A stretch of DNA of 64,000 nucleotides from Polyangiaceae bacterium (lineage in GTDB: Bacteria > Myxococcota_A > Polyangia > Polyangiales > Polyangiaceae): contig JANRKO010000023.1 of the NCBI GenBank assembly GCA_033763455.1, positions 128,001-192,000 of the forward strand. The letters run 5' to 3'. The notes below the pieces were generated by a model. It searched no databases, had not been told where the DNA came from, and saw nothing but the letters and a program-made list of their open reading frames with translations. The position numbers and the translations under genes are program-made. Shown here in pieces: positions 42,428 through 61,570 of this stretch. Numbering within the stretch: position 1 is the stretch's first letter; each line of letters begins with the position of its first letter.

Positions 42428-42622
42428 TGGGGTCGGGGTTGCGCCCACTTTCGGGTCTGGCGCACCCGTTCACGATCTTCGAACGGCAGGTCCCACTCAG
42501 TCCTTAGCGCTTTGGTGTGAAAGGCCCTTAAGCGCCTCCGTAGCGTCGCTTTCTGAATGTGGGTGTCTCAGCCCGAGACACCGAGCCTTCGATGCGCTCA
42601 AGCTCAGGTCTCAACCGGCCGT

Positions 42623-44917
42623 ATGGAACCTCACATGCCCCTGCCCGTACTGCCTGGCTTAAAAGAGCGCTCCTTATTCGCTCATCTAGTCCCCGGGCTT
42701 CTCTGCAAGCTTACCTTGGGCGGGAAGTTCCTCGAGGTTTCAGAGGAGCTGGCGACCGTGCTCGGAGCTCCAACCGACACCTGGATCGGTCGCGGACTGG
42801 ATGAAGCGGTAGCGGCAGATGAACGTGAAATCGTACTTTCGGAAGTACAGAGCCTCTCGCTGGGTGCCCCCATCAGCTTCGACACGACGTGCACCCAGGG
42901 AGAAAAGCGCCGGGTGCTGCGTTGGTGGCTCGCGCTCGAGCCCCAGGAGCGGGTCATCCTAGCTGCCGCGTTGGACGTCACCGAGGCAGCTTCGCTCAAA
43001 CACAAGATGCACCTGCAACACGAGGTTCAACAAGCCGAAGTCTCAGCGCAGCGCGATCTTAATCAGTTGAACGCGCGAGTGTTCAACGCACCCGTAGGCA
43101 TCTACCAAACCGACCGGCATGGCCGATTCGTGTTTGTGAACCGTCGTTGGCAGGACCTTACGGGAATGACAGACGAGGAGGCTTTGGGAATTGGTTGGGC
43201 CCGCTCCGTCCACGCAGACGAACGTCACAAAGTGCTTGGCACCTGGCAGAGCATCACTGATCGCGGTGAAGACTTCTCTCAAGAGTTTCGCGTTGTGCGG
43301 CCCGACGGGAGCCTGCGTTGGGTGGTGGCCGAAGCGAGCCCGATGCGCCAAGACGGCCAAATCACTGGATACCTGGGGGTTGTGGCGGACGTAACTGAAC
43401 GAGTCCACGCCCAGCTTGAAGCGGAGCAAAACAAGCTTTTCGTAGAGCGCATTACTGAGTCCACGCCGTACGCGGTCTACCTCTACGATTTGGACCGTCG
43501 TTCTTACCTCTATTCCAACCGAGGCATGGCCAAGATCCTCGGCTATCCTCCCGAAGAAACCGCGCCCGATGTAGCGGCACTCTTTCAGAGCATTATCCAC
43601 CCTGAAGATCTGCCTAGGTTTCGCGACCATTTAGAGCGTTTGCGGGAGGCTCGCGACGGCACCATTGTACCCTTTGAAGGTCGCGTTCAGCATTACGAGG
43701 GGAACTGGCTCTGGTTGTTGTCACGCGACACAGTTTTCAAGCGGGGTTCCGATGGATCGGTAGTTCAGATCTTGGGAACTATCGAAGATACTACTCAGCG
43801 CAAAGAAGCGCAGGAAGAGATCTCAGAAGCGAACCACAAGCTGAAAAGCTGGGCCGAAGAGCTCGAAAGAAAGAACAAAGAAACCGATATCCTGCGCGAA
43901 ATGAGTGAGCTTCTGCAAACCTGCCGCGATGATGAAGAGGCCTTCCAGGTGATTGGCTGCATCATGCGCAAGCTCTTTCCCACCCAGCCCGGAGCACTCT
44001 CCATCCTCTCTTTATCTCGAAAGCGCCTGGAGCAAGTGGTTACCTGGGGCGGCGCAGAGGCGGCCCCCATTGCGCTACGGCCAGTCTATTCACCCGAAGA
44101 TTGTTGGGCGGTTCGTCGAGGCAACGCCCATCGCGTGGACGATCCCTCGCTCGATCTTGTTTGCGCCCATGTCGATGCCGGCCATCTGGGCCCCTACACC
44201 TGCGCCCCCATGATAGCGCGAGGCACCTTGCTCGGCGTATTGCATGTGGCACACCCCGAACAAACGGTGCACGCTGGGCGCCCGCTCATTCTTGCGGTTG
44301 CAGACGGCATTGAGCTCGCGTTAGCAAACGTAAAGCTCAGAATGACGCTGCGCGACCAAGCAATTCGCGAACCCCTCACCGGCCTATACAACCGCAGATA
44401 CATGGAGGAGGGCCTTGATCAGGCCATTTACCGAGCAAAACGTCATTCACAACCACTCACCGTTGTAATGATAGACGTGGATCACTTCAAACGCTTCAAC
44501 GATACTTTCGGACACGACGCGGGCGATCTCCTGCTCAAGGAGCTTGGTCGGGTTCTCAAGCTCCGTGTGCGCCGGGAAGACATTGCTTGCCGTTTTGGTG
44601 GCGAAGAATTTGCCCTCATTCTGCCGGAATGTTCGGTTCCGAACGCTTTAGAGCGGCTAAGGAAACTGACCGCTGAAGTAAAGGCCATGAAGCTCCACCA
44701 CGACGGAAGAGCGCTCGGGACGGTCACGCTCAGCGTGGGCGTTGCGGTATTTCCTGAGCATGGGCAAACACCCGAGCTGTTGCTGCGCCGTGCCGACGAG
44801 GCGCTCTATCAAGCCAAGCTCCAAGGTCGCGACCAAATCCGCGTCGCCTACACGGATCCAAACGTGAGCCCAACGTCCGAGCCGCCCTCTGCGCGCAACC
44901 CGTCGCTGGTGGCGTAG
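42623..44917 (+). CDS. PAS x3-GAF-GGDEF diguanylate cyclase
   Basis: PAS/PAC repeats, GAF (DCWAVRRG), EPLTGLYNRR, DHFKRFND, RxxD (RRED), RFGGEEF. Confidence 0.93.
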   Translation: MEPHMPLPVLPGLKERSLFAHLVPGLLCKLTLGGKFLEVSEELATVLGAPTDTWIGRGLDEAVAADEREIVLSEVQSLSLGAPISFDTTCTQGEKRRVLRWWLALEPQERVILAAALDVTEAASLKHKMHLQHEVQQAEVSAQRDLNQLNARVFNAPVGIYQTDRHGRFVFVNRRWQDLTGMTDEEALGIGWARSVHADERHKVLGTWQSITDRGEDFSQEFRVVRPDGSLRWVVAEASPMRQDGQITGYLGVVADVTERVHAQLEAEQNKLFVERITESTPYAVYLYDLDRRSYLYSNRGMAKILGYPPEETAPDVAALFQSIIHPEDLPRFRDHLERLREARDGTIVPFEGRVQHYEGNWLWLLSRDTVFKRGSDGSVVQILGTIEDTTQRKEAQEEISEANHKLKSWAEELERKNKETDILREMSELLQTCRDDEEAFQVIGCIMRKLFPTQPGALSILSLSRKRLEQVVTWGGAEAAPIALRPVYSPEDCWAVRRGNAHRVDDPSLDLVCAHVDAGHLGPYTCAPMIARGTLLGVLHVAHPEQTVHAGRPLILAVADGIELALANVKLRMTLRDQAIREPLTGLYNRRYMEEGLDQAIYRAKRHSQPLTVVMIDVDHFKRFNDTFGHDAGDLLLKELGRVLKLRVRREDIACRFGGEEFALILPECSVPNALERLRKLTAEVKAMKLHHDGRALGTVTLSVGVAVFPEHGQTPELLLRRADEALYQAKLQGRDQIRVAYTDPNVSPTSEPPSARNPSLVA

Positions 44918-44962: not shown

Positions 44963-47887
44963 TTATCGACAACGTTTAGACCGCGTTGAGGCCGTCGCGG
45001 TGCGGCCGTTGAGCGACCAAACCAGATTTCCCGAGGTGAAGTCCACGGCAAACGTGTCCACCTGTCGACCAGGCATGAAGAGCGTACTTTGACCGCGATC
45101 GATCGGAGCCGGCGTGAACTTATTCTGTGACCCAATCGGGATGGTGACGGGGAGTAGATTAGGATTCTTGTAGCCGAAATGTGCTGTATAGATGCCGGCC
45201 TGCTCGGTGACACATTCGAGCACGGCACTGACCTTCGCGGTAGGTGCGCTCCCGAGTGTGAAGCGCGCCACCAATGGGTCGTGGTCACTGGCTTGGTCGA
45301 GGAACTCTGCATTCACGTGGACGATGTCAAAGCCCGAAAGTGGGGCGCCGGCCAGGCTCGGGCTCACCAAAATGTGGTCCAGAGCCTGAGAGTTGCCCTC
45401 GAAGACGTAGGTGTAGCGTTCTCCGGGAGGTAGATTTTCCACGAGCGGGCTGAGACCCACCGATTTGAGCACCGACATGGGAGCCGAGAATTCAAAGTCG
45501 TTGATGTCCCCTGCGACTAGGACAGCCGCCTGTGGATCAATGGCCATGAGCGACTGGACGAAAGTGGCGACGACGGTGGCTTGCCCGATGCGCTGCGCTT
45601 CGGAGCTCAATGTTGGAGGCTGAAAGCGCCCGAAAAGGCCCTGGTCGCCACCTTTCGAGTTGAAGTGATTAGCCACCAGAAAAAGCTTCTTTCCATTGAA
45701 CTGGAACTCACCGACGAGCGGCTTGCGGCTGCTGGAGAAAGCTGTGTTGAGTGGATCGATACGGCCTGGACTAAAGGTAAGCTCTGGCATCCCGGCGTTG
45801 TTGAACGCCGTGGTCGCCGTAGTAGCACTAGCGCCAGGGCGATCGACGAAGCTCAAACCACGGTCCGTTCGGAAAAGGAAAGCCACCCGAATGTTGCCTC
45901 CGGGCTCTCCGCCATCCTTGTTATTTTCTGGGTCAATCGAGCGGTAGTCGTAAGTTGGTCCACCCGCAGCCTGGATGGCGCCAATAAGTGCTGCAAACGT
46001 CTGCGTGGCCTCAACCGTCCCGTCGTTGATGGGTCCGTTGTTGTCCTGCACTTCTTCGAGTGTCAGCAGATCTGGCGCACCAAGGTTATTTACTATCAAG
46101 CCTGCCAGCCGTTGGAACTTCTCTGCAGGGTCGAGCGCATCGAGGTTTTCCACGTTGAACGATGCCACGGTCAATTGCTGGGCCAAAGGGGCACCGAAGC
46201 TGACTGTTTCTTGAGTCAGGCCGCCACTGGTCAGGCTCGGCAGGGTGGTAGCCAGGAGCTTGAAGTTGCCAAAAGAGTAATCCAGAATGCCTTCAACCGT
46301 ACCCAGGAACCGATCGGCGACATTGGCGTCAGGCAGAACAATGCTGTTCGGCAGAGCATCGGATAGGAAGACTCGCTCGGGATTGAAATCCGCGCTGGCG
46401 ATCACGATCCCTCCGCGCCCTGTAAGGGTTGCAGCGGAAGCACCGCCATCGGCAAGCAGCGCGATTTCCTTGTTCTGACTTGCCCCGGATCCGAAGGTTC
46501 GCGTGGGGCCCGCGACCTGCGCGTTGGCGATCTCGACGCGCATGCCCTCAAGGCTTTCGTAGAAGTCAATCCCGTCCGCAGCAGGGTCGAACACGGCGGA
46601 AGAAGTTTCGACGCTGCCAGCGCCGTCGTCGTCGATCACGGAGGCGGGAACGATGCGTCCACCTTGACCCAGCCGAACGGGTGCGGGCAGCGCATTGCCG
46701 TTCGTGAGCACGGTGATAGTCGTGGGACGGTTGACCTCCGTGATCGTGAGGTTGTGGTAGGCGCTGCTCGTGGTGGAACAGCTCGGTGTGCATCCGGGAC
46801 GAAACTCTGTGATGGGCCCCGTTACGAGCACTGAATCACCCACGTTCACACCAGGAGCGCTCCCTGTGAACACCAGAATCCCTTCTGACGTGGCGTCGTC
46901 GGAGTCGTGGGACGGATCTTGAAGGTAGAAACCGTTGTTGGTAAGCGCCGTAACGATGCCGGGGAGATTGGTCACGCTCTGGCCGTTGCGTGGGGAAAGG
47001 TGCGACGCGCCCTGAACATCTCGAATGCGGAGTGGGCCGGAGCTTGGGGCGCCGCCCGAGCTCGTGCCACCTGAACTTGTACCGCCCGTCTCGCTGCCCG
47101 CGGCTCCCCCTTGCCCCGCTTGACCTGCTCCCCCGCCATTGCCGCCTGAACCGGATCCCCCGGATCCGCCTCCTGGATTGGAGCACGCGGAAAGCGGCGA
47201 GGACGAATTACGCGGTTCCACAGCCCCCACCGAGAAGTCCGCGGCATTGTTATTCGTGTCCACACAGCCGCCACCGAGGCGCTGGACCGACGTACTGTTG
47301 CTGGTGGCCGGAGTTGGGCTCCCGCCTTCGGAGAAGTTGGCCGCACCGTAGCCCACAAGGTCGATGACCTGAGCCATTTGGGCGGCGGAACACGGAGTCG
47401 AACTTCCATTAAATCCGAGCGATGAAGCGGTGTTGACGAGTGCCACTTTTCCGCCGGTAGCACTCATAGCGATGGGCGACGCGTCAACTAGATCGGGCGT
47501 GGGGAGCGCGGCGGCTCCGAGAGTCGATCCAACTGCTTCCTGGATGAGATAGGATTGCCCTGGTGCCAGCATCACCGCCGGGAGCTCAGTGAGCTGGGTG
47601 GTGGTGCTGCCAAAGTTGCCCGTGCCGCTGGCGCTTGCGTACTGGACGGACCAACCCGCGAGGTTCACCGGAACGCTGCCTCGGTTGAATAACTCAATGA
47701 AATCATGAGTATAAGGCCCGCCGGCGTTACCACCGCCGCCAAACACTTGCCGGATGACGACGTCTGAGCTGACCGCGAGGTCAAATGACCTGGACGCGGA
47801 ACGCTCAGACTCGGTAGCGGAGCATGCCGCCAGAACCATGCCCAAAGCTGTGATCCCAAAAACCGCGCGATATACCCGTGCCTGCAT
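44963..47887 (-). CDS. Extracellular nuclease lipoprotein (lamin-tail domain + OB fold + EEP endonuclease/phosphatase + C-terminal beta domain)
   Basis: LAAC lipobox; LTD (VVIRQVFGGGGN..DFIELFN); IRDVQGASHLSP; FYESLEGM; SFNVENL, EEVQD, NHFNSK, GDIND, SDHDP. Confidence 0.9.
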   Translation of the reverse strand: MQARVYRAVFGITALGMVLAACSATESERSASRSFDLAVSSDVVIRQVFGGGGNAGGPYTHDFIELFNRGSVPVNLAGWSVQYASASGTGNFGSTTTQLTELPAVMLAPGQSYLIQEAVGSTLGAAALPTPDLVDASPIAMSATGGKVALVNTASSLGFNGSSTPCSAAQMAQVIDLVGYGAANFSEGGSPTPATSNSTSVQRLGGGCVDTNNNAADFSVGAVEPRNSSSPLSACSNPGGGSGGSGSGGNGGGAGQAGQGGAAGSETGGTSSGGTSSGGAPSSGPLRIRDVQGASHLSPRNGQSVTNLPGIVTALTNNGFYLQDPSHDSDDATSEGILVFTGSAPGVNVGDSVLVTGPITEFRPGCTPSCSTTSSAYHNLTITEVNRPTTITVLTNGNALPAPVRLGQGGRIVPASVIDDDGAGSVETSSAVFDPAADGIDFYESLEGMRVEIANAQVAGPTRTFGSGASQNKEIALLADGGASAATLTGRGGIVIASADFNPERVFLSDALPNSIVLPDANVADRFLGTVEGILDYSFGNFKLLATTLPSLTSGGLTQETVSFGAPLAQQLTVASFNVENLDALDPAEKFQRLAGLIVNNLGAPDLLTLEEVQDNNGPINDGTVEATQTFAALIGAIQAAGGPTYDYRSIDPENNKDGGEPGGNIRVAFLFRTDRGLSFVDRPGASATTATTAFNNAGMPELTFSPGRIDPLNTAFSSSRKPLVGEFQFNGKKLFLVANHFNSKGGDQGLFGRFQPPTLSSEAQRIGQATVVATFVQSLMAIDPQAAVLVAGDINDFEFSAPMSVLKSVGLSPLVENLPPGERYTYVFEGNSQALDHILVSPSLAGAPLSGFDIVHVNAEFLDQASDHDPLVARFTLGSAPTAKVSAVLECVTEQAGIYTAHFGYKNPNLLPVTIPIGSQNKFTPAPIDRGQSTLFMPGRQVDTFAVDFTSGNLVWSLNGRTATASTRSKRCR

Positions 47888-48009
47888 GATGAGTAATCCT
47901 CTCTGTGACCTGGGGCGCACAGCCGCAACGAGTGTTGCGGTCTGACGCTATGGGTAAGACCTATACTTCAGGGCGCGCGCGCTTCGTAAAACGTTCTCGC
48001 AATGATGCT

Positions 48010-48025
48010 GTGACTTGTGTGTGAT
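48010..48025 (-). promoter_or_regulatory. Pho-box-like direct repeat upstream of the nuclease
   Basis: Minus strand ATCAC-ACACAA-GTCAC, 11-bp period. Confidence 0.55.
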
Positions 48026-48190
48026 TCGCGAGCTCGGAAAGAGAGCTCGGCCGGCTGGCGCGTTCGCTGCTTCTCAGCGATTAGACTGAAACATCCCTAG
48101 CTTTGCATGGGGTGAGTGTTTCATTCGTGTGCAGTGGGCTCATCCAGACGCCGCGATGTTAAAAGGTATTGGCCTCGGGCAGCGACTGAA

Positions 48191-48556
48191 TCAGCGCGTG
48201 CCCACTAGGACGCTGAGCATGAATCTGAGCATCCCGGGGTCCCCCTTGCAGACGTAGCCCGCCGCCCCGGTTTGCTCGACCGCCAACCGCAAGGAATCCT
48301 CGTCATTCGACGAGTAGAGTACGACGCGGGCAATCGTCTCCTTGATGAGCAGGGGGGCCAGACGATCGCCGCTCAAGCCGGGCATGTTGATGTCAACCAG
48401 CACCACGTCTGGCATGAACTCGTTTACCGCCCTGGTCGCACCAAAGGGACTGCCGTAAGTCTTTACTTCGTACCCCTCAAGGGTCAGCAATTCTCGCACC
48501 ATGTAGAGATGATTCTCATCATCATCGACTACAAGAACCCTTCCTCTTGCGATCAT
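48191..48556 (-). CDS. Single-domain response regulator
   Basis: VVDDD, phosphoacceptor LVDINMP, SS, VCKG; ATGA overlap with the kinase. Confidence 0.92.
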   Translation of the reverse strand: MIARGRVLVVDDDENHLYMVRELLTLEGYEVKTYGSPFGATRAVNEFMPDVVLVDINMPGLSGDRLAPLLIKETIARVVLYSSNDEDSLRLAVEQTGAAGYVCKGDPGMLRFMLSVLVGTR

Positions 48557-49776
48557 AGCAATTCCTTCGTCGCTCCAAGTTTTGATCCTAGTGGAAGCCG
48601 TAAGGTAACGGTGGTTCCGGAATTGACCTGGCTGGTAAGGCTGAGCTTGCCACCCAAGAGCGCGGCGAGCCCACGGCTGATCACGAGCCCAAGTCCTGTA
48701 CCATCGCGGCTCCTCGTCCTCACGTCACCCACCTGGCTGAAAGCTTGAAACAGCCCACGCTGCTCCTCCTCGGAGATGCCAACCCCCGAATCCGAAACCA
48801 CAAACACCACCTCCCCTTCTTCTTCCCAGAGCTGTAGTCGGATCACCCCTTTTGACGTGAACTTCACGGCGTTGCTCACCAGGTTAGACAATATCTGACG
48901 GAGCTTGGTGCTATCTGTATACAACGCAACATCCACTGGCGCATCCACCACCACCTGAACGGGCAGGTCACCTATGAGCACCCGCGCGACTTCTGCTGAC
49001 TCGGTGAGGAGCGAAAGTGAGCTCACGAGTTCCACTCGAACCTCTACCTTGCCAGCTTCAAGCTTAGCATGGTCCAGAACACTATTGATCACCGCTCTTA
49101 GGTGGCTGGCGCTCGACTTTAGAACACGGACATGTTCGCCGAGCCTGTCCCCCTGGGCGTGGGCGTGGGCGCTTTCTATCAATTCTGATAGGCCAACGAT
49201 GGTGTTGGTTGGGGAACGGAGCTCATGAGTTACGTGGGCTAAGAAGCTCGACCTAAGGGCGGACATGCGCTCTACCTCTCGGCGCCGGGCCTCGGCGATG
49301 GCGTTAGCCTGTCGCACGCGGGCGAGATCATCGCTCAGGTGAAGGACGAGGCGTTTTATCGATAACATGCCAATATAGCGCCCATTTTTGTCCACGACGA
49401 TCAGGTCGTCATAGGCGTCTTGTTCTGGACGGGAAAACGCCAACGCCAACGCTTCATCGGCCGTGACGGCGGGGGAAATCTGGCATGCGTCCGTCTGAGT
49501 CAGTTCCCGAATCGGGCGGGCCCCGAACAGGGCATGACCGAAGCGCGTGAAAAGCTTCTGTGAAAGCTTGTTTCGGGTGACGAGGCCCAGGGGGATTCCG
49601 GCGCTCACGACTGCTAGCGCCTCCCACGAAGTCTCTCGAAACCAGCGTTCGGAAACTTCGTTGACTGTCAGTGCCGGTGGCAGCGTGGGCGTCTCCGTGA
49701 CGAGGCCTAGCAAACTGGGCTCACCCGGGGAATCGTGATGGATGTCGACGGCTGCGTTCACGAGGAGCCCAACCAC
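48553..49776 (-). CDS. Soluble CBS-pair histidine kinase
   Basis: CBS-like motifs (ALAVVSAGIPLGLVTR; DDLIVVDKNGRYIGMLSI), H-box THELRSP, NLVSNAVKFT, DSGVG, GTGLGL; no TM segment. Confidence 0.85.
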   Translation of the reverse strand: MVGLLVNAAVDIHHDSPGEPSLLGLVTETPTLPPALTVNEVSERWFRETSWEALAVVSAGIPLGLVTRNKLSQKLFTRFGHALFGARPIRELTQTDACQISPAVTADEALALAFSRPEQDAYDDLIVVDKNGRYIGMLSIKRLVLHLSDDLARVRQANAIAEARRREVERMSALRSSFLAHVTHELRSPTNTIVGLSELIESAHAHAQGDRLGEHVRVLKSSASHLRAVINSVLDHAKLEAGKVEVRVELVSSLSLLTESAEVARVLIGDLPVQVVVDAPVDVALYTDSTKLRQILSNLVSNAVKFTSKGVIRLQLWEEEGEVVFVVSDSGVGISEEEQRGLFQAFSQVGDVRTRSRDGTGLGLVISRGLAALLGGKLSLTSQVNSGTTVTLRLPLGSKLGATKELL

Positions 49777-49807
49777 ACAAGGTGCCTGAAGAGGTCGGAC
49801 GAGGGAG

Positions 49808-49823
49808 GTGACATCCTTGTGAC
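49808..49823 (-). promoter_or_regulatory. Pho-box-like direct repeat upstream of the CBS kinase
   Basis: Minus strand GTCAC-AAGGAT-GTCAC, exact, 32 bp upstream of the annotated start. Confidence 0.65.
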
Positions 49824-49860
49824 GAGCTTTGGCATCGGCCGTTGTTTGAGTTGGACGGCC

Positions 49861-51408
49861 TTAGGTCCTCGTCCCATTCCCCAGATTTTCTGCCGTTTTC
49901 TGGAGCAAGGCGCGATCCTCCTCGCGCAGGATGAGCCTCGGGATCTTGTTCTGCCCACCCAGCTTGCCACGTGTTCGCATCCATTCGTGAAATGTCCCGC
50001 GAGGCACGACGCGTACGTCGGGAGCGTGCAACCCGTGCGAGGTGCCGCGGTGCACCTCATAATCGTCGTTCTGGGCGGCAATGTCGCAGTCGATCACCTG
50101 CGCGAAGCGGACAAGATCGGGCGTGGGCCCCTCCAGTTCTAGCCAATACACATGGCGCGCAGCACTGCTGCCATCGATTCCAACCTCAGTGGTGAGAGTG
50201 AAATCAACGAGACGCGCTGCTAGTTCCCTGGATGCACGGAGCACGGCACGTTCGAGCTCGCCTTGGGAAACATGTTCCCCCTGCACATTCACGAACGCCG
50301 CCGTCCGACCCTCGAACAACACTCGGTGGGGAAACACGCTGGTGAAACGCAGACAATCCCCAATGAGATAGGCGAAAATGCCGGACATCGTGGTGACCGC
50401 GATGGCGTACACGGCGTTCTTTTCCACCTCCCACAACGTGTAGCGACGGGGATTCTCCAACCCCACGTCCGCCTCCGGGACAAATTCGTAGAAGATGCCG
50501 TTGTCGGGCAAAAGCAGCATCGAAGGGTCGCGGGGGTCGTCCTGAACTCCGAGGATTCCGCCTTCTGTGGCACTATAGGTTTCCACGTAGGGCACGCGTC
50601 GACCCAAGCGCGCCTCAATGAGCCCCCGATAGGGTTCGTAAGCCACTCCACCCCCCGTTAGAAAGCTCAAGTTGGGCCAAACGTCGCAAATGGTGTCTGC
50701 TCCCTTGCCCCGTAGCTTTGCCTCGCCCAGTACTCTATCGAACAACCCTGGGAACCACGCGGGCGTTCCCACCAGCATCCGCACATCTTCCGCAACCGCT
50801 TCGCGGGCGGCTTCTCGGATCTTATCGTCCCAATTGGCAATGCCACGTGTGGTTGCGCTGGGGAGATACTTTCCATGCAACGCCCGAGGCACGTGACGCG
50901 CCATGACGCCCGTGTTATCGCCCACCAAAACACCGCAGGCTCGCTCTTCTAGCTTGGGTGAGCCGCCCAGCATCAGCACTTTGCCATCCAACAACTTTGA
51001 ATCACGCGTCCATGACAAGTAGGAAGCGATCGGTTCAAACCCTCCGCGTTGCTGCTGGCGCACTGAATCCGCGGATATCGGCAGGTACTTGTTACCCGCA
51101 GTAGTACCGCTTGTCATGCCAAAGTAGCGAATCTTTCCGGGCCAAGTAACGTTCTTATTGCCGGCAAGGGCTTGCTCAAACCAAGGCTTCAAGTCCTCGT
51201 AGCGCCGTAAGGGCACGCGCGCCTGAAAGCTTTTGACACTACTGATGCCCGAAAACCCATAGCGTTGACCGAACGACGTCATTTCTGCCCGACGCACGAG
51301 CGATGCGAGGGACGCTTCTTGGGCTCTGCGTGGATTTCTTGCAGCCAATCGTCGTTGTGCGGCTCGGGCGTGTCCCGCCAACACCAACCCACGACCGAGG
51401 ATGCTCAT
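49861..51408 (-). CDS. GH3 family acyl-acid amido synthetase-like protein
   Basis: FQARVPLRRYE, WPG, TSGTTAGNKYLPIS (P-loop), ETYSATEG, FYEFVP, YLIGD, GQNKIPRL. Confidence 0.9.
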   Translation of the reverse strand: MSILGRGLVLAGHARAAQRRLAARNPRRAQEASLASLVRRAEMTSFGQRYGFSGISSVKSFQARVPLRRYEDLKPWFEQALAGNKNVTWPGKIRYFGMTSGTTAGNKYLPISADSVRQQQRGGFEPIASYLSWTRDSKLLDGKVLMLGGSPKLEERACGVLVGDNTGVMARHVPRALHGKYLPSATTRGIANWDDKIREAAREAVAEDVRMLVGTPAWFPGLFDRVLGEAKLRGKGADTICDVWPNLSFLTGGGVAYEPYRGLIEARLGRRVPYVETYSATEGGILGVQDDPRDPSMLLLPDNGIFYEFVPEADVGLENPRRYTLWEVEKNAVYAIAVTTMSGIFAYLIGDCLRFTSVFPHRVLFEGRTAAFVNVQGEHVSQGELERAVLRASRELAARLVDFTLTTEVGIDGSSAARHVYWLELEGPTPDLVRFAQVIDCDIAAQNDDYEVHRGTSHGLHAPDVRVVPRGTFHEWMRTRGKLGGQNKIPRLILREEDRALLQKTAENLGNGTRT

Positions 51409-51429
51409 GGTGTCCTCATAAGCGGTGTG

Positions 51430-52872
51430 TCAGGCGCGAGCGACAATGCCCGGGGCCTTCACTTTCGCCAGCGCGAAGATAGTGTTGATGGGGTTTACCC
51501 CAAGGGCAGTTGGGAAAACGCTGGCATCACAAACAAATAGATTGTCAAAACCGTGTACGACCAGGCTGCTATCCACTGCGCCCAACTCCGGATCGTCCGA
51601 CATAGGATTTCCGCCCTGAGGGTGGGAACTTCCGCAGGAAATCTCCCCGATAGAACGGAACAAGCGTGGTGTACGTCTCAGCTCCTCGGCATCCGCAAAG
51701 GATCGGAGTCGGTGCGTCGGCATCGCGACGGACCTGGCGCCTGCGGCAAATAGCACCTGGGCGGCCTGCCGGTTCGCTTGCTCAAGGTTGGCAAGGTCAG
51801 CCGAGGGCATCTTGAATAAGATTTCTTCACCTTGAGTAAAGCGGCTTAGGCGCACCCTACCGACCGGCGCCGTCGGAACGATACAGCCAACATACGCAAG
51901 ATGGCGCAAGCGCTGCATTTGTCGTCCGTGATCGCCACCCCAGCCGGCGGTCGTGAGGGCTGCGCTCATTGGCGGATTGTGGGTGGCCTCCAGGAGCCAA
52001 TTCGGCGTTCTCACACAGGCGGTCATTTGATCGCCATCGAAACCGTCGAGCTCGTCCTCGAAGTCCCCGGCGAGCGCTGTCGCGGCGTTGAACGAAACCC
52101 GCGTACCAATGTGTTTCGTCACACCACTTGCCAATAACAGGCCGCTCGAGCCGATAGCACCACCTGCCACGACGACCACCCGAGCCTGAACCAGGAGTTC
52201 CTCGCCGCCACGACCCACGCGCACTCGCACCCCTCGCACGGCACCCGCTCGATGTTCAAGCTTTTCCGCAAGGGCTTCGGGCAACACCTCCGCACCTGCC
52301 GATTCTGCTTGAGCTAAATAGGTCAGATCCGCGCTCTTTTTTGTCCCGAAGGTGCATCCCACGTTGCACTGGCCGCATCCGAGGCATCCCCCAACGGCCT
52401 TCTGCATCCAGCTCGGCGAAAGGCCCAGCTGGTCCGCCCCCTCAAAGAACCGGCGTGAGCTCTTCGTTATCGTATTGCGGGAGGCTTGGCGGACCTCAAG
52501 CTCCTCCTCTACTTCGGCATAGGCCTCATTCATGGAGCCCGTTGCAATATTGGCTCCAAGCCCACGCCATTGCGCGAACACAGACGGATCCGCACGTAAC
52601 ATGACCATGTTCGAAAGCACGGAAGAGCCACCGACCACGGTACCTTGAAGAACGAAGAGGTCCATCGAAGCATTGAGCTGCATGCCCCCATCCTTGTAGA
52701 GGCTAGGGATCATCCGCAGCTCATTGTGCGTCATATCCGCCGGACGCATGCGCGGACCGCGCTCCAAAACGAGCGTTCGTAGCCCCTTGCGCGCTGCCTC
52801 TAGAGCAACAACAGAGCCCCCTGCACCCGAACCCACGACACACACATCGACGCAACGCCTACGCATAGGCAC
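51430..52872 (-). CDS. GMC family FAD oxidoreductase (long-chain alcohol oxidase/cholesterol oxidase-like)
   Basis: VVGSGAGG, LERG, VGGSSVLS, CLGCGQCNVGC, SSHPQGG, LFVCDASVFPTALGVNP. Confidence 0.9.
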   Translation of the reverse strand: MPMRRRCVDVCVVGSGAGGSVVALEAARKGLRTLVLERGPRMRPADMTHNELRMIPSLYKDGGMQLNASMDLFVLQGTVVGGSSVLSNMVMLRADPSVFAQWRGLGANIATGSMNEAYAEVEEELEVRQASRNTITKSSRRFFEGADQLGLSPSWMQKAVGGCLGCGQCNVGCTFGTKKSADLTYLAQAESAGAEVLPEALAEKLEHRAGAVRGVRVRVGRGGEELLVQARVVVVAGGAIGSSGLLLASGVTKHIGTRVSFNAATALAGDFEDELDGFDGDQMTACVRTPNWLLEATHNPPMSAALTTAGWGGDHGRQMQRLRHLAYVGCIVPTAPVGRVRLSRFTQGEEILFKMPSADLANLEQANRQAAQVLFAAGARSVAMPTHRLRSFADAEELRRTPRLFRSIGEISCGSSHPQGGNPMSDDPELGAVDSSLVVHGFDNLFVCDASVFPTALGVNPINTIFALAKVKAPGIVARA

Positions 52873-53368
52873 TTACCGACGGCGGGGTACGCACGACACT
52901 GAGCGCAGCGCGCTTGCGCTGAAATCTCGGCCTATTGGGCACATCCACGAATTGTGTGGCGCCCTTGGCGGCCTCGTCCCCATACACACCCATGAACACC
53001 AAGTAACGAACCTTGGCGCAGAGGCGGTACACGCGGTGCCCGTGTTCAAACTTATGGTAGAGGAACGCACGGCGCTCGCTCACGCCCATTTGCGACAGGC
53101 GAGACCCCGTGGAGACTACCGGCAGGAGCTCAAGCGTGGCGAGCAGCGCCCGAACGCGAAACGCTCGACGTGAGTTCCCGCAGATAAGAAATGTCTCCAC
53201 ATTGTCGGCAATTTGCTCTTTGCTAATCGCGACTGGGCTTCCTTCGTGGAGTGCTTCGGCGATGGCGGTCAAGACTTTCCACTCCCAGTTGGAAAGCGCG
53301 CGCCCCGGATCTACCCGAGGCAGAGTTCGGTACACTAATTCTTCGAGAGGCAAGGTAATGAACGGCAC
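52859..53368 (-). CDS. Hypothetical helical protein, probable small subunit/partner of the GMC enzyme
   Basis: Overlaps the GMC start; the helical pattern (..ERRAFL....LVFMGVYG) resembles gluconate-2-dehydrogenase subunit-3-like partners. Confidence 0.65.
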   Translation of the reverse strand: MPFITLPLEELVYRTLPRVDPGRALSNWEWKVLTAIAEALHEGSPVAISKEQIADNVETFLICGNSRRAFRVRALLATLELLPVVSTGSRLSQMGVSERRAFLYHKFEHGHRVYRLCAKVRYLVFMGVYGDEAAKGATQFVDVPNRPRFQRKRAALSVVRTPPSVSAYA

Positions 53369-53581
53369 AAGACATTCTTGCGAATGACCTCGTCAAATTC
53401 GCTACGATTGTGAAAACTCCTGAAGACGCGCTCCTGGTGTAGCGCCTTGTGCTTGGTGGCCGGGAGCTCGTCGGAACTGGGAGGCGGCAGGAGTGGGCGC
53501 GAGTTAAGGGGTAGGATCTGCGATTGGGTCCGTGTGTGTTTTCTGCACACCCTGGTTCAGCGCCTTCGAAGCACTTCAGAA

Positions 53582-53599
53582 CTGTGACGAATGTGTCAT
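53582..53599 (+). promoter_or_regulatory. Pho-box-like repeat in the divergent promoter
   Basis: CTGTGAC-GAAT-GTGTCAT (11-bp period), with TACATT downstream; also readable as ATGAC-N6-GTCAC on the minus strand. Confidence 0.55.
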
Positions 53600-53644
53600 A
53601 ACTGAGGCAAAATCCTAGGGCTGCCCTTCGCGCTTGCTACATTT

Positions 53645-54928
53645 GTGTTTGTGGTCAAGCGCTTCTTGTTTGGGATCCTCGGTGCGGCATCGTTCAGCTA
53701 CGCGTGGAATGGCACGGTCGCTCTCTGGCTAGGTCGTTACGATCAGGTCACGTGGGAAGTTGAGAATCCGGAAGTGCCAGCTCCCCCTGGAAACTCGGGT
53801 CCTTATCGAGTGAGGGTCGTGGACACGCGTCGGGTTGTCCCGAGCGAAGGCATGAATCCAGACGTTAACGTGCAGAACGCCAACAACAACTTGCATGCTG
53901 TCCGCCATACGGATGGGCGCGTTTACCTTGCCTGGCGAAGCGCGCCCACGCACTTCGCCAGCGAGTTCGCTGAGATCATCGTCGCGAGTAGCGAGGATGA
54001 GAAAAACTGGCGCAACGAGGCGTCATTTTCGATGTCCACGGATCTCCGCGAACCTCAGCTTGCGTCCCTCAATGGTAGGCTCCACTTGTACGTCTCGAAG
54101 TTGGGCGCAAACGCATTCGACTTCGCCCCCGCGGGGGTTTACGTGGCAACTCGCAGCGAATCCGGAGTTTGGAGCAAGCTTTCCGAGCTCGGCTTACCGG
54201 GGCAAATTGCCTGGAGTGTGCGTTCGCAGGGATCGTTCGCCCTGATGTCAGCCTACAAGGGCGGTGAGAATATGTACGCGCTTTTTCCGGAACCACTCAG
54301 CGTGAATCTTCTCGCGAGCTCAGACGGGGTGTCATTTCGGCCGTGGTACCCCGGCTCGGCCCCCTTTTACCAGGGAGGCGCGTCGGAGACGGATTTCGCT
54401 GTGACCGATTCAGGTAGCTTCCTTACGGTCATGCGCAACGAAGCCGGAGACGCCACAGGTTTCGGATCTATTGTGTGCGAGCGCGCGCGTCCGAAGGCCG
54501 GTGTGGCACCCATATGTCGATCGGATCCCAGGAAGTTCGATTCTCCGCGACTCTTTCGCTTTGCTCGGGAAACGTACCTCATCGCGCGGCGCAATGTCAC
54601 CGATACGGGGGTTTTCGATCAGCCTCCCGGATTCTTCAACCGCGGGCCCCTGCGCCGTGGGGTGAATCAGTTGAAATACATTGTAGAGCGCAAGCGGTGC
54701 TCCGTTTGGCATTACGTGGCGCAGGAACAACGTTTCACGTTCGAGCTCGATTTGCCCTCGCGAGGTGATACGTGCTTTGCCTCGATTCTTCGGGGAAGTA
54801 ACCCTTCAGAAGTGGTGGTGTACGACTACAGTTCCGACATCCAAGGTCCGGATGTACCGTGGACGGTCGGGCAACGTTCCCCCACGTTTATCTATCGGCA
54901 CGTCCTTGATTTCCATCCACCACCGTGA
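53645..54928 (+). CDS. Exported sialidase-like/BNR beta-propeller hypothetical protein
   Basis: N-terminal hydrophobic helix; Asp-box-like SSEDEKNW and SSDGVSF; DLREP, ASETDF, LPSRGDTCF. Confidence 0.65.
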   Translation: MFVVKRFLFGILGAASFSYAWNGTVALWLGRYDQVTWEVENPEVPAPPGNSGPYRVRVVDTRRVVPSEGMNPDVNVQNANNNLHAVRHTDGRVYLAWRSAPTHFASEFAEIIVASSEDEKNWRNEASFSMSTDLREPQLASLNGRLHLYVSKLGANAFDFAPAGVYVATRSESGVWSKLSELGLPGQIAWSVRSQGSFALMSAYKGGENMYALFPEPLSVNLLASSDGVSFRPWYPGSAPFYQGGASETDFAVTDSGSFLTVMRNEAGDATGFGSIVCERARPKAGVAPICRSDPRKFDSPRLFRFARETYLIARRNVTDTGVFDQPPGFFNRGPLRRGVNQLKYIVERKRCSVWHYVAQEQRFTFELDLPSRGDTCFASILRGSNPSEVVVYDYSSDIQGPDVPWTVGQRSPTFIYRHVLDFHPPP

Positions 54929-54972
54929 CGGCTTGCCCGCCTGAGGCGGTGAGGTCTACCTGCCTTGCGTTC

Positions 54973-54988
54973 GGCATACGGTCGTCAC
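54973..54988 (+). promoter_or_regulatory. Degenerate Pho-box-like repeat
   Basis: GGCAT-ACGGTC-GTCAC upstream of beta-helix lipoprotein 1. Confidence 0.4.
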
Positions 54989-55024
54989 GTGGCTGCCTTG
55001 CAAGGATGCCAAGATCCGCAGGCC

Positions 55025-56614
55025 TTGACCCATAGCTCCGATAGCTTAGTTCCGTTGCCCCACCGCCTACTAGGTTTGGGTTTGGTGGCTTTCAGCCTGC
55101 TGGCGTCGCGGTGCACTCGGCTAGAGAGCGCTTCCGACTTTTTCCCTCAAGCCGCCTCGGCTGGCGGCATCGCCGGAGCGAACGGGCCGGGAGTCATGGG
55201 CGGAACTGGGAACGTTGGCATAGGTGCCGGTGGAATGGCCCAAGGTCTGCCGATAGGAGGAGGGAACTCGGTGGGAGGAAGCGTCTCTGGCGGAGCGAGT
55301 GGCGGCCCGAATGGGCTGTCTGGCGGAGCAGGAGCGAACGGAACCGGGGGTGCCGCGAACGCGAGCTGCCCGCCCGTCCCCGAAAGAGTGCGGGTGGAGC
55401 TCGGAGGGCCGGCTGGCCTCGATATCGCCGAAGACACGACCTGGACCTGCCGGAACCTGTACGTGCTCATGGGGCAAGTGTTTGTGCGCGCTGGTTTCAC
55501 ATTACGCATAGAGGCTGGAACTGTCGTCCAAGCTGCCCATCCTCAGGCATTCTTGCTTTCGGTGCGGGGTGGTCGTATCGAGGCCTTCGGCACCGAGCAG
55601 GCACCGATTCTGTTCACAAGTGGCAAAGTAGTCGGCACGCGTGCAGCGGGCGATTGGCGCGGCTTGATCTTGATTGGCGGCGCCCGCACCAATCAGGCAC
55701 CCAATTCCACCGTCCACGATACGGTCGGGGACGCGCGCGCGCAGTACGGCGGTGGCCCATTGGGCCCCGGGAGCGGCAGCTGCGGCATCTTGCGTTACGT
55801 GCGGGTGGAGTATGCAGGCGGGAACATTGGCGACAACGCCTTGCCGGCGGCAGGGCTGACTCTCGCTGGCTGCGGTAGTGAAACCATCGTTGAGAATGTG
55901 CATGTACATCGCTCGGGCGATGGCATCGGATTACTGGGTGGAACAGCACCGCTGCGCAAAGTGATCGTAAGCGGTGCCCTTGACGATGGAATCGAATGGG
56001 TGTCCGGCTACACGGGCAGCATGCAATATGTGGTGGTGCAAATGTATGGGGCCTTCTCCACAGCGCTCACCAGCAACAACTCCGAGAGCAACCCTTCTGC
56101 GGATCCCGCGTCGGAGCCCACGATCTTCAACGCTACCTTGGTAGGCAACCCTCAAAGTCCGCTCACGAGTGACCAGGAAACCGGAGTTGCCTTTGCTTTC
56201 GGTGGCGGTGGGTACCTACGAAATTCTGTAGTGCTCGGGTTCAGGAAATGGGCGAGCGACGTGTTGGGTGGCGAATCGACGGCGCTGGCCACATCCGGCA
56301 AGCTCGACGTCAGCCATTCGATTTTCTTTGGAAACAGCGATCCAGCATTCCCTGGCACGGCCGACGATCTGTTCGACGAGACCGCATTTTTCACTGACGA
56401 AAGCCGCAAGAATCGCTTTGTGGATCCACAGCTCGTACGGCCCCAGGATGAGCTCGCACCAGACTTCTCACCCATGAGCTCGGAAGTCGACCAACTCCCG
56501 GCACAAATCCCGACCGACCTTGATTCGCTCGCCGTGTTTCGTGGAGCACTTCCAGTGCAGGTCTTTGGGGCGACGGACTGGACGAAGGGCTGGACCGCCT
56601 TCCCACGTAACTAG
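55025..56614 (+). CDS. Right-handed beta-helix lipoprotein, paralogue 1
   Basis: Signal ending in Cys, Gly-rich linker, LRIEAGTVV, GTEQAPILFTS, GDWRGLILIG, LRYVRVEYAG, DDGIEW, C-terminal WTKGWTAFPRN. The start is approximate. Confidence 0.75.
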   Translation: MTHSSDSLVPLPHRLLGLGLVAFSLLASRCTRLESASDFFPQAASAGGIAGANGPGVMGGTGNVGIGAGGMAQGLPIGGGNSVGGSVSGGASGGPNGLSGGAGANGTGGAANASCPPVPERVRVELGGPAGLDIAEDTTWTCRNLYVLMGQVFVRAGFTLRIEAGTVVQAAHPQAFLLSVRGGRIEAFGTEQAPILFTSGKVVGTRAAGDWRGLILIGGARTNQAPNSTVHDTVGDARAQYGGGPLGPGSGSCGILRYVRVEYAGGNIGDNALPAAGLTLAGCGSETIVENVHVHRSGDGIGLLGGTAPLRKVIVSGALDDGIEWVSGYTGSMQYVVVQMYGAFSTALTSNNSESNPSADPASEPTIFNATLVGNPQSPLTSDQETGVAFAFGGGGYLRNSVVLGFRKWASDVLGGESTALATSGKLDVSHSIFFGNSDPAFPGTADDLFDETAFFTDESRKNRFVDPQLVRPQDELAPDFSPMSSEVDQLPAQIPTDLDSLAVFRGALPVQVFGATDWTKGWTAFPRN

Positions 56615-56681
56615 CGCCCCCTCCCTTCGTCCTAGGAAACGTGAACGCAACGCTCGAAAGACCGCGAGGCGTTGACTGCTC

Positions 56682-56697
56682 GTCACACCGAAGTCAC
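56682..56697 (+). promoter_or_regulatory. Pho-box-like direct repeat upstream of beta-helix lipoprotein 2
   Basis: GTCAC-ACCGAA-GTCAC, exact, 29 bp before ATG 56726. Confidence 0.65.
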
Positions 56698-56725
56698 CTG
56701 CGTGAGGGATGTTCCTGCGACGCAA

Positions 56726-58435
56726 ATGAAAAACTCCGCTTCCCTCAAGGCGATCGGTGCGACATGCGCCGTTCTGGCGATCCTTACTTCCTGCAAACGG
56801 GAGGACGGTGCCGCGCCTTCTGGCTCAGGCGGCGCATCAGCCATGACGGGTGGTAGCGTAAACGGGGCGGGTGGTGCGAATTCGGGTGGTACAAGCGCCG
56901 CTGGCAGTGGCGGGCTAGGTGGAATGCCAGGCCAAGGTGCGGGCGCCGCTGGCGCACCCGTATCGGGTGGCAGCGCCGGGATGGGCCAGGGCGGCCAGGC
57001 GGGAATGAACCCAGGCTCAGCGGGGCAAGCGGGCAGCGCGGGAGCGCCTAGCTCGAAGTGCGGACAGGAGAGCGCACGACCCGTAGTAGAGATCGATGCC
57101 GATCTGACTTCGTCGAGAACTTGGACGTGCGACAAGATTTACCTTTTGAACCGGCCTATCAACGTGGTGGGCACGGTGGAGTCCCGAACCGTGCTAACAA
57201 TCGAGCCAGGTACGCTCATCCGCGGGGCCAAGGGGGTTATGGGTCAGGTGCTCCCTGGTGCTCTTATCGTGACGCGCACCGGCCAGTTGATTGCGGACGG
57301 CACCCGAGAGGAGCCGATCGTGTTCACGAGCAACGTTCCGGTAGGTCAGAGAAGCCCTGGGGATTGGGGGGGCGTCATCTTGCTCGGGCGAGGGCCAAAC
57401 AACGTCGGTGAAACCAACGTGGAAGGTGTCCCTCAGGGCGAAGTCACCAAGCACGGTGCGCCGTTGGGAAGTGCTGACCACGCGTGGAATTGCGGCGTCA
57501 TGCGTTTCGTTCGCATCGAGTTTTCTGGATTCATATTGACCGGATCCAAGGAAATCAACGGCCTTACTCTGGGTTCGTGCGGGTACGAAACCACGATCGA
57601 CCATATCCAGGTACATCGTGGCTCGGACGATGGCGTAGAGCTGTTTGGCGGAGTGCCTGACCTCAAGCATGTGGTAATCACCGGGGCGCAGGATGACTCC
57701 CTCGACTGGGACCAAGGCTATTCGGGTCGTATCCAGTACTTGGTGGCTCAGCTTCACCCCGGCGATGCGGACAAAGCCATCGAAGCTGACAACAACGAGA
57801 AAGCGCCTCTGGCAGTGCCGATTTCCACACCGCGCCTGTTCAATCTGACGCTCATCGGGGTCAATCTTGGCGGAGCGCTGCCCACCAGCAGCGTAGGCAT
57901 CACGCTGCGAAATGGCAGTCACGGGAGCATTCGGAACAGCATCATCATGGGTTTTGATGCTGGTGCGCTCGACGTCGCTGGCAATGAATCTGAAGCCGCA
58001 CTTCAAACGGCAAGGCTGTCGGTCGAAAACTCGATCTTCGTGGGGGTGCCCGGCAAGCTATTTCCGACCGGGAGCGACGACAAGGCCGACAACGATCTGA
58101 TCGAGTCGGATTTTTTCGCGAAGTTCGCGTTCAGCAATCGTTCATTCGCTGACGCTGCCGAAGCCTCAGCCGCGTCCCTGCTGCCTGATCCATTCCATCT
58201 GTCGTCCCCCAATTGGGTTCCGATCAGCAATTCTCCCGCGGCCAGCATGGCCGAGGCACCGAGCGAGCTTCCTCTAGAAGGCTATGCGGGAGCCGGTGCG
58301 GGTGGTGCCGGCGGCGCGGGGGCGATTACCCCACAGCGCCCCCCATTTTTCGACCTTGAGGCCACCTTTGTTGGGGCGTTCGAGCCTGGTGGAAACAATT
58401 GGGCCGAGGGCTGGACGGCATTCCCGCCCAACTGA
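56726..58435 (+). CDS. Right-handed beta-helix lipoprotein, paralogue 2
   Basis: LTSC lipobox, Gly-rich linker, LTIEPGT, GTREEPIVFTS, GDWGGVILLG, EINGLTLG, DDGVELFGG, DDSLDWDQGYSG, IEADN, WAEGWTAFPPN. Confidence 0.8.
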   Translation: MKNSASLKAIGATCAVLAILTSCKREDGAAPSGSGGASAMTGGSVNGAGGANSGGTSAAGSGGLGGMPGQGAGAAGAPVSGGSAGMGQGGQAGMNPGSAGQAGSAGAPSSKCGQESARPVVEIDADLTSSRTWTCDKIYLLNRPINVVGTVESRTVLTIEPGTLIRGAKGVMGQVLPGALIVTRTGQLIADGTREEPIVFTSNVPVGQRSPGDWGGVILLGRGPNNVGETNVEGVPQGEVTKHGAPLGSADHAWNCGVMRFVRIEFSGFILTGSKEINGLTLGSCGYETTIDHIQVHRGSDDGVELFGGVPDLKHVVITGAQDDSLDWDQGYSGRIQYLVAQLHPGDADKAIEADNNEKAPLAVPISTPRLFNLTLIGVNLGGALPTSSVGITLRNGSHGSIRNSIIMGFDAGALDVAGNESEAALQTARLSVENSIFVGVPGKLFPTGSDDKADNDLIESDFFAKFAFSNRSFADAAEASAASLLPDPFHLSSPNWVPISNSPAASMAEAPSELPLEGYAGAGAGGAGGAGAITPQRPPFFDLEATFVGAFEPGGNNWAEGWTAFPPN

Positions 58436-58467: not shown

Positions 58468-59514
58468 CTAGAAGCTCGCGCTGCAGTGCACGGTGGTCGC
58501 TCCGAGCATGCATCCGAAGCGGGATGAAGCTCGCTCCGCAGATGGCGGAGACGACAAGAGAAGCGTGACGAGGCCCCCCGCCATCAACGCACCGCCTGCC
58601 CCATAGAGAATCAGCATACGCTGTTCCGACCTGTTCATGTCGCGCTCGATCCCGGCGCACTGGTCACCGCGGGAACGCCCAAGGGGTGCCTCGCAAGCCG
58701 CGCTGTTCCACTGGCTGGCCTTGTCTTCACGGTCCAAATGAAACGGCACAGCGGCACCCGCTCCGACGGCGCCGAGGGTCAAAACCACACTCCCGAGAAA
58801 CCGACCGGTCGAGCCTTTGGCCCCGCTGGGTTCTTTTTCTAGGGCAGTTTTGATTGGTTCGCGCGATGTTTGCCGCGGGGGTAATTGGATGGGTCGAGCC
58901 GCGGTGCCCACGGTGCGCAGCGCATTTCCGTGCTCATCCAACAACACAAGTAAGAATTCTCGCGGAGCGTTCTTACTGGGAATGGAAACGATTACAGGCT
59001 CTCCCTTAACGACCTTGACCTTCGTCGCAGTATACCGCCCACCTGCGCGGCGGGAGCGAACTCCAAGCGCGCGCACCATATCTGCAGGATCGGTCACTTC
59101 AACGATCAGCTGTTTTTGATCGTCGCTAAACGTGGCTCGAGCATCCAGCTTCTCGTCAATGCTCTTCCAGAACCCGAGGGCTTCGGCATACGGTCCACGC
59201 AGCTTCGGCGATAGGCTCTTCTCAAGACGCGTGTCGGGGTTGATACCAATGAGCGCCGTAAAAGCGGCTTTGGCCTCGTCCTCCTCACCCAGAGCTGCGG
59301 CGGACATGGCAAGTAGGAAATACAAGCGCTCGGTGTCACGCGGCTTGTGGGAACCGCGCGATAACGCCTCCTTGGCCACTTCCCGCGTTCGCGAAAAATC
59401 AACCTCCCGATAGGCTGTTTCTGCCTGCTGAATCGAGGCCGGGCTCTTGGCCCAAGCGGCGTTGGCAGTTGCCAGAAATAAGCACAAAACACTCAGCCTT
59501 ATGAGTACACACAT
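58468..59514 (-). CDS. TPR-containing exported protein
   Basis: Signal peptide, TPR helices (LYFLLAMSAAALG..DEAKAAF), LSPKLRGP, C-terminal hydrophobic hairpin ending in F; starts 1 bp after the kinase stop. Confidence 0.75.
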   Translation of the reverse strand: MCVLIRLSVLCLFLATANAAWAKSPASIQQAETAYREVDFSRTREVAKEALSRGSHKPRDTERLYFLLAMSAAALGEEDEAKAAFTALIGINPDTRLEKSLSPKLRGPYAEALGFWKSIDEKLDARATFSDDQKQLIVEVTDPADMVRALGVRSRRAGGRYTATKVKVVKGEPVIVSIPSKNAPREFLLVLLDEHGNALRTVGTAARPIQLPPRQTSREPIKTALEKEPSGAKGSTGRFLGSVVLTLGAVGAGAAVPFHLDREDKASQWNSAACEAPLGRSRGDQCAGIERDMNRSEQRMLILYGAGGALMAGGLVTLLLSSPPSAERASSRFGCMLGATTVHCSASF

Positions 59515-59515
59515 G

Positions 59516-61330: not shown

Positions 61331-61570
61331 GGCGAAACCCGCTCCCACTCCGTGTTACTTCTTTGGGAAAGAGACAAGGCGGACGTGTGACAGGCCGGCC
61401 TGCTCGCCAGGCCCGTCCCGGGAGTTTTCACAATCGTAGCGAATCTGACCTCCTACGCAGGACCCGCGCCGCGAAACGGCAGTGTGCGATGGGTCGCTCG
61501 CGCCGAGAGCCAGGGATGGCGACTATCGTCGGGGAGTGCGCGCCAAACGTTGAGCAGCCGAGATCAGAAG

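Follow-up and report, generated by a model that had tools for sequence, protein, structure and literature searches.

The DNA analysed here (the window, 64 kb long) covers positions 128001-192000 of contig C23 in the draft genome G000 of a Polyangiaceae bacterium (6.56 Mb, 59% G+C, 92 contigs). Between window positions 44963 and 58435 lies an island of genes whose upstream regions carry direct repeats of the form GTCAC-N6-GTCAC or variants of this word. From genome-wide counts, promoter comparisons and gene content, we consider it likely that the word is the PHO box of this genome, and that the genes for a putative extracellular nuclease, for a CBS-domain histidine kinase with its receiver protein and for a beta-helix lipoprotein (lipoprotein 2) are induced by phosphate starvation. 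We take the island to contain a real segment of a Pho regulon, known biology in kind, in a new lineage. This provides a tested definition of the PHO box for an uncultured lineage of Myxococcota, in which phosphate control has been little studied, and predicts a likely role in phosphate starvation for a divergent extracellular nuclease and for the very widespread PF28492 family of uncharacterised proteins.

The GTCAC word at phosphate genes

Five of the eight intergenic copies of the exact word in the genome precede phosphate genes. On contig C64, exact boxes lie in front of, and point at, a gene for a PhoB-like regulator (C64:14345-15043), the pstS-pstC-pstA-pstB-phoU operon (C64:15176-19730, box before pstS), a second PhoB-like regulator gene (C64:21654-22358) that stands with a kinase gene (the pair at C64:19765-22358), and a divergent gene set (C64:14107-6868) comprising tonB-exbB-exbD, a TonB-dependent receptor and a beta-helix lipoprotein, where the box precedes tonB. 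PhoB is the best NCBIfam match of both regulators (262 and 258 bits). On contig C27, a phosphate-selective porin O/P gene and a second pstS are preceded by three tandem units, ATCAC-N6-GTCAC-N6-GTCAC (C27:88910-36). The original prediction, made from the window alone, had staked itself beforehand on the motif occurring at pst and pho promoters, and it occurs at the pstS-phoU operon, the PhoB-like regulators and the porin-pstS pair. The distance from box end to start codon is 27 and 25 bp for the two regulators, 26 bp for tonB, 41 bp for the porin gene and 56 bp for pstS. From 10 relatives of the same family, 11 pstS loci were compared, and each of them contains a box with at most one mismatch; in 8 of the 11, this box is on the pstS strand, 160-200 bp ahead of the PstS match.

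Since the word is found at pho genes here and at pstS of the relatives, it is the PHO box of this bacterial family in the sense of the literature, which describes a pair of direct repeat units, each of 11 nucleotides, in Escherichia coli CTGTCAT-N4-CTGTCAT (PMC4415409). The two share the direct repeats with an 11-bp period, the GTCA core, the orientation towards the gene, the promoter position at pstS, the phosphate porin and the regulator's own genes, and the occasional presence of three tandem units, here at C27:88910-36. They differ in that the conserved unit is GTCAC here, with the two preceding bases little conserved, that in several cases only 25-31 bp separate the box from the start codon, suggesting leaderless transcripts, and that two PhoB-like regulators are encoded in one locus; binding of PhoB to the boxes is predicted.

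The window has two exact copies, one on the minus strand (49808-49823) and one on the plus strand (56682-56697). Shuffled windows contained 0.16 exact copies on average, in agreement with the earlier estimate of well under one chance copy in 64 kb, and two or more were reached in 1 of 100 shuffles with position unconstrained. Genome-wide, 8 of the 17 exact copies are intergenic according to crude open reading frame (ORF) calls that assign 90.5% of the DNA to coding and 9.5% to intergenic sequence. Simulated intergenic DNA (first-order, 619 kb) gave an expectation of 0.92 copies (standard deviation 0.86, maximum 3 in 60 runs), so that the exact word is about ninefold enriched; the site at 56682 becomes a ninth intergenic copy after the start of the lipoprotein 2 gene is corrected, as described below. 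Intergenic enrichment, which had been proposed as a test of the motif, thus holds for the exact word and fades in its looser forms: one-mismatch sites are only slightly enriched, with 35 of 245 intergenic (14%), and two-mismatch sites are not enriched, with 454 of 3729 intergenic (12%), or about one per 1.4 kb of intergenic DNA. Outside the island, the intergenic DNA of the window has four more two-mismatch sites. Weak boxes were ranked by their mismatch class relative to the GTCAC core only, and weak matches to the word are not judgeable by sequence alone.

Nuclease, kinase and lipoprotein genes with their boxes

All five box sequences listed in the original prediction are present in the island, and its descriptions of the genes (a nuclease with LTD and EEP domains, a CBS histidine kinase with a receiver, a beta-propeller and a beta-helix lipoprotein) were confirmed by Pfam matches and structure models. 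Its view of the GTCAC word as a Pho-type box of scavenging genes agrees with the presence of the word at pho genes, and extends with additional support to three of the five units.

The first of these is the nuclease gene (44963-47920, minus strand; start possibly ATG 47889). It encodes 985 amino acids and, like Xds, ExeM and NucH, a large protein with an N-terminal lamin-tail domain (Pfam LTD, 1.4e-12, residues 51-164) and an EEP nuclease domain (Exo_endo_phos, 3.4e-09, residues 586-880); secretion and activity are predicted. Unlike those proteins, it scores under the cut-off of the ExeM/NucH model (159.2 bits against NCBIfam NF033681, cut-off 300 bits), and we therefore regard it as a divergent relative. 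Box 1 (ATCAC-N6-GTCAC, one mismatch; 48010-48025, minus strand) lies 89 bp upstream of GTG 47920, points at the nuclease gene and is likely a PHO box. An orthologue of the nuclease, split into pieces with two stops and about 70% identical, was found only in the relative G002. Its promoter keeps the box as ATCACAC(A/G)CAAGTCACAG, with ATCACACGCAAGTCACAG at the box 1 position, inside a conserved block of about 45 bp amid a diverged spacer. The ATCAC/GTCAC variant is intergenic in 5 of its 11 copies in the genome, one of them at the porin-pstS promoter and two of the five representing one repeated sequence, and the flank of box 1, GTCACA, is of the type found at genuine pho boxes. In Vibrio cholerae, the LTD-bearing nuclease encoded by xds is reported to be induced by PhoB under phosphate limitation, with DNA as a phosphate source (PMC6746945), and a study of the Caulobacter PhoB regulon includes exonucleases and TonB-dependent receptors among the members that it lists (PMC11208175).

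The second unit comprises the gene for a predicted cytoplasmic histidine kinase of 407 amino acids (48553-49776, minus strand; Pfam CBS, HisKA and HATPase_c) and, overlapping it by 4 bp, that for a stand-alone receiver-domain response regulator of 121 amino acids (48191-48556, minus strand; Pfam Response_reg, 9.7e-17). Box 2, an exact copy (49808-49823, minus strand), is located 31 bp upstream of the GTG start of the kinase gene and points at it, within the 84-bp gap (49777-49860) between this gene and a GH3 gene.

The third unit is the gene for beta-helix lipoprotein 2 (56726-58435, plus strand), which encodes 569 amino acids with a signal peptide, the lipobox LTSC and a match to Pfam PF28492 (Beta_helix_4). 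Its start is most likely ATG 56726 (MKNSASLK...LTSC) instead of TTG 56672, and with this start box 5 (exact; 56682-56697, plus strand) falls in an intergenic gap of 111 bp (56615-56725), 28 bp upstream of the ATG and pointing at the gene. Both exact boxes of the window are thus in short intergenic gaps, as had been claimed before the start was corrected, and both are likely PHO boxes. The structure model of lipoprotein 2 (predicted local distance difference test score, pLDDT, of 80) has a right-handed beta-helix core. A search of the PDB returned only generic pectate-lyase-like beta-helix enzymes (E about 1e-3), so that structure gives no indication of its function.

We propose that one or both of the PhoB-like regulators encoded beside pstSCAB-phoU would bind the GTCAC repeats and recruit RNA polymerase under phosphate limitation. 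The secreted ExeM/Xds-like nuclease would free phosphorus from DNA, and the PF28492 lipoprotein would be displayed on the cell surface. The kinase and the receiver would form a second signalling step that is made only under starvation, and might tie the response to adenine nucleotides or a signal like them, a suggestion that derives purely from the CBS domain. As boxes 2 and 5 end 28-31 bp before the start codons, similar to the 25-27 bp at three genuine boxes, they may stand in for the -35 element of a transcript with no leader or almost none.

Extent of the proposed regulon and alternative explanations

Several observations weigh against this interpretation. The exact word as a whole is no more frequent in the genome than chance predicts (17 copies, about 16 expected at the shuffle rate), its signal being confined to intergenic DNA. 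About one intergenic copy would be expected by chance, and 4 of the 9 intergenic copies are away from known pho genes. The phoX gene, the alkaline-phosphatase gene and a third pstS have no intergenic box with at most one mismatch. Because of these genes, we take the ten-base word to catch strong sites only and to describe the regulon incompletely. All three genes do have sites in which a single, proximal unit is good, for example cagaacGTCAC, and two one-mismatch sites upstream of the phosphatase cluster sit inside a called, probably spurious ORF. In the island itself, boxes 2 and 5 share the left flank GCTC and are followed by C, while all five genuine boxes of the genome are followed by A. 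No orthologue of the kinase was found in the five relatives searched, where the one match spans just the kinase core. In G001 and G003, the orthologues of lipoprotein 2 (56-58% identity) are preceded by another gene and lack a box with at most one mismatch, which either counts against phosphate control of this gene or would at least mean that the control is not ancient; the expected conservation of boxes in orthologous promoters is thus seen at pstS of the relatives and at the nuclease gene of G002, and fails at lipoprotein 2. No TonB-dependent receptor gene adjoins the two beta-helix genes of the window. A scan of 47800-57000 for sigma-70-like promoters returned 0 sites and is uninformative for activator-dependent promoters. 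The genes of the island are patchy even among relatives of the same genus, and we therefore call the island accessory.

The original prediction had placed all five units in one Pho-type regulon, which would include the beta-propeller gene, the gene for beta-helix protein 1 and possibly the GH3 operon. We regard this wider regulon as unlikely, with box 4 at chance level and the regulator of box 3 uncertain. Box 3 (GTGAC-N6-GTCAT, two mismatches; 53584-53599, plus strand) lies 45 bp upstream of GTG 53645, the start of the beta-propeller gene. In the orthologous promoters of the congeners G001 and G002, TGTGACG(A/G)ATGTGTCAT, of which box 3 is the core, is invariant while the flanks do not align, and we therefore consider box 3 a real cis element. 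In G001 it extends upstream to an array of four units at an exact 11-bp period (GCGAC, GACAC, GTGAC and GTCAT). This array, the occurrence of GACAC in pstS boxes of the relatives and the intergenic position of 3 of the 6 GTCAC/GTCAT copies would suit a PhoB-type regulator. Another regulator would fit the near-palindromic nature of the element (9 of 10 positions), which is as marked as its direct repeat, and the conservation of its spacer. Moreover, none of the 10 one-mismatch copies with GTGAC as their distal unit is intergenic, the element has no other near copy in the genome, and a search upstream of 8 more distant homologues did not recover it. The gene (53645-54928, plus strand) encodes 427 amino acids of a predicted membrane-anchored, six-bladed, sialidase-like beta-propeller (AlphaFold model, pLDDT 89), which has no Pfam match and 808 homologues. 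Its top Foldseek matches are Dfer_1899 (E 1.8e-12) and sialidases, with a template modelling score of about 0.5. Identification as a phytase or PhoX was considered and rejected, as the Foldseek matches listed were mainly sialidases and one protein annotated without a function.

Box 4 (GGCAT-N6-GTCAC, two mismatches; 54973-54988, plus strand) belongs, like box 3, to the class with 454 intergenic copies, and no orthologue of the gene behind it is present in G001-G003 for comparison. It is indistinguishable from chance by its sequence, and we treat it as noise. The gene encodes beta-helix protein 1 (54965-56614, plus strand), a PF28492 paralogue 37% identical to lipoprotein 2, with the atypical lipobox ASRC and an uncertain start, probably near 55076-55085.

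The GH3 operon (49861-53368, minus strand) encodes, according to domain matches, a 169-residue protein without assignment, an oxidoreductase of the glucose-methanol-choline (GMC) family and the GH3-like enzyme. No PHO box lies within 200 bp of the operon start, and there is no supported box upstream. A possible link of this operon to phosphate is one of content: the product of the GH3 gene (49861-51408) has, like OlsH, all three GH3 domains, and OlsH (NF052613, E 1.2e-107) is its only NCBIfam match. OlsH of Singulisphaera is described as a GH3-like lyso-ornithine lipid synthetase, the ornithine lipid being free of phosphorus, and its homologues outside the planctomycetes may use other amino acids (PMC12493201). 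The window enzyme may make a phosphorus-free N-acyl amino acid lipid. It differs from OlsH in its score, 360.6 bits against a cut-off of 620 bits, and in its neighbours, which are the GMC oxidoreductase and the 169-residue protein instead of the hydrolase OlsI.

It is also improbable, in our estimation, that the boxes of the window serve as operators for a different member of the OmpR/PhoB regulator family whose half-site is similar, by which the island would answer a signal other than phosphate. The genome encodes at least eight full-length OmpR/PhoB-type regulators, several PhoR-PhoP pairs have been reported in Myxococcus (PMC4415409), and the shared flanks of boxes 2 and 5 (GCTCGTCACA ... 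GTCACCT), unlike those of the five genuine boxes, could mark a paralogous regulator. Against such a regulator stand the ten core bases, the same as in the pst boxes, the genuine flank type GTCACA at the nuclease box, and the content of the island, since an Xds-like nuclease and an ElpS-like lipoprotein with a paralogue in the pst locus fit phosphate scavenging. That the boxes are functionless chance occurrences is very unlikely: although chance would place about 0.9 exact copies in the intergenic DNA of the genome, the overall frequency of the word equals chance and the lipoprotein 2 orthologues lack a conserved box, two exact copies lie within 7 kb, both intergenic, both pointing at a gene 28-31 bp from its start as at genuine sites, in a number that 1 of 100 shuffles reached, and the nuclease box shows a phylogenetic footprint. 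We thus retain phosphate control of the nuclease, kinase/receiver and lipoprotein 2 genes as the preferred interpretation.

The PF28492 family and further observations

The most interesting by-product of this analysis is that PF28492 lipoproteins are linked, across phyla, to a TonB-dependent receptor and to pho loci. The family is estimated at about 13,000 stored stretches in the genome collection. In G000, the paralogue of the window lipoproteins (C64:6868-8406) is part of the PHO-box-led TonB-ExbBD-receptor operon beside pstSCAB-phoU (C64:6868-14149), whose receptor has a carboxypeptidase-regulatory domain, and a 2135-residue Rhs/FG-GAP repeat protein comes next. Of 79 related loci surveyed across many phyla, 61 encode a homologue of the C64 receptor, directly upstream on the same strand in 46, directly downstream in 9 and further off in 6; it is thus directly adjacent in 55 loci, and the 18 loci with no receptor match include some on short contigs. 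Genes of the pst system occur in 4 of the 79 loci (L117, L116, L123 and L072), and phoB-phoR adjoin in 6 gammaproteobacterial loci, two of which score above curated cut-offs and the other four of which are 54-93% identical to those two. In 13 further loci there is a regulator 39-45% identical to PhoB. The related loci are not independent, and these counts are therefore overstated. The spacer between phoB and the beta-helix gene contains PHO boxes of the E. coli type in three of the six gammaproteobacterial loci that were inspected (L103, L106 and L123). Exact GTCAC boxes lie a short way upstream of tonB in three Myxococcota loci, where they are on the strand that belongs to the divergent side.

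ElpS (CC0170) of Caulobacter crescentus probably belongs to PF28492, as judged from synteny in Sphingomonas and from the published description. ElpS is described as a surface lipoprotein produced in phosphate starvation, whose gene has that of the receptor CC0171 and a cluster for type II secretion as neighbours (PMC2996285; PMC7777525), and it is reported to raise extracellular phosphatase activity (PMC2996285). A Sphingomonas member of PF28492 is followed by a TonB-dependent receptor and then by the gsp type II secretion cluster, and a search from this homologue gave only Sphingomonas proteins among the 120 matches listed. ElpS and the PF28492 proteins thus resemble each other as lipoproteins of about 50-60 kDa to which no domain had earlier been assigned, in a link to phosphate starvation, in the usual neighbourhood of a TonB-dependent receptor and, in Sphingomonas, in the order of lipoprotein, receptor and gsp genes. 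The two window copies differ in having no adjacent receptor or type II secretion cluster. Searches of the literature outside subscription journals turned up only the work on ElpS as connecting a lipoprotein and receptor of this kind with the Pho regulon.

As a tentative joint reading, which we hold to be possible and not yet probable, the PF28492 lipoprotein and the TonB-dependent receptor with its carboxypeptidase-regulatory domain would constitute a PhoB-controlled outer-membrane module that captures and imports some phosphorus compound. This module would be common to Myxococcota, Gemmatimonadota, Acidobacteriota, Gammaproteobacteria and others, with ElpS as its only studied member. Receptor-less copies would have spread in the present genome, where the Pho response would also turn on the CBS kinase and its receiver as a second, energy- or nucleotide-sensing layer. 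Given that PF28492 proteins recur with the receptor and, in several phyla, with phoBR or pst genes, the earlier observation on ElpS becomes a testable hypothesis, that of a module dedicated to the uptake of phosphorus.

Proteins of some Myxococcota (P0082, P0103, P0110, P0116 and P0119) combine the PF28492 domain with a serine/threonine protein kinase domain, and these fusions suggest that the PF28492 domain can act as an extracellular sensor module. A conserved element, GAAAC-N6-GTCACAATCG, occurs upstream of the operon with the lipoprotein 2 orthologue in G001 and G003 (L047, 10440-10455, and L048, 9243-9258), and points away from that operon.

Other sites with GTCAC-type units were noted in the genome. 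Three tandem near-units (GTAAC, GTCAC and GGCAC; C25:1887-1913) are located about 390 bp upstream of the alkaline-phosphatase gene cluster. On contig C20, three tandem units (GACAC, GTCAC and GTCAC; C20:88570-88596, corresponding to 4571-4597 of L044) lie in a stretch of about 900 bp without a convincing ORF, between the end of the lon gene and the gene for tRNA-Val, and may drive a small RNA or a small protein. On contig C33, an exact box (C33:124946-124961, L045) is found 75 bp before the gene for a membrane protein of 182 amino acids, which is followed by genes for a type III polyketide synthase and a methyltransferase; we take this gene set to be reminiscent of phenolic-lipid synthesis.

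The base composition of the window at the island is ordinary, and the sequencing runs that contain the stretch are DNA runs only, from sediment and soil metagenomes, with no RNA run listed. Signalling genes border the island on both sides. An HDOD protein and a PAS-GAF-GGDEF cyclase are encoded at 39334-44917, and a TPR protein and a serine/threonine kinase with a PEGA domain at 58468-61348.

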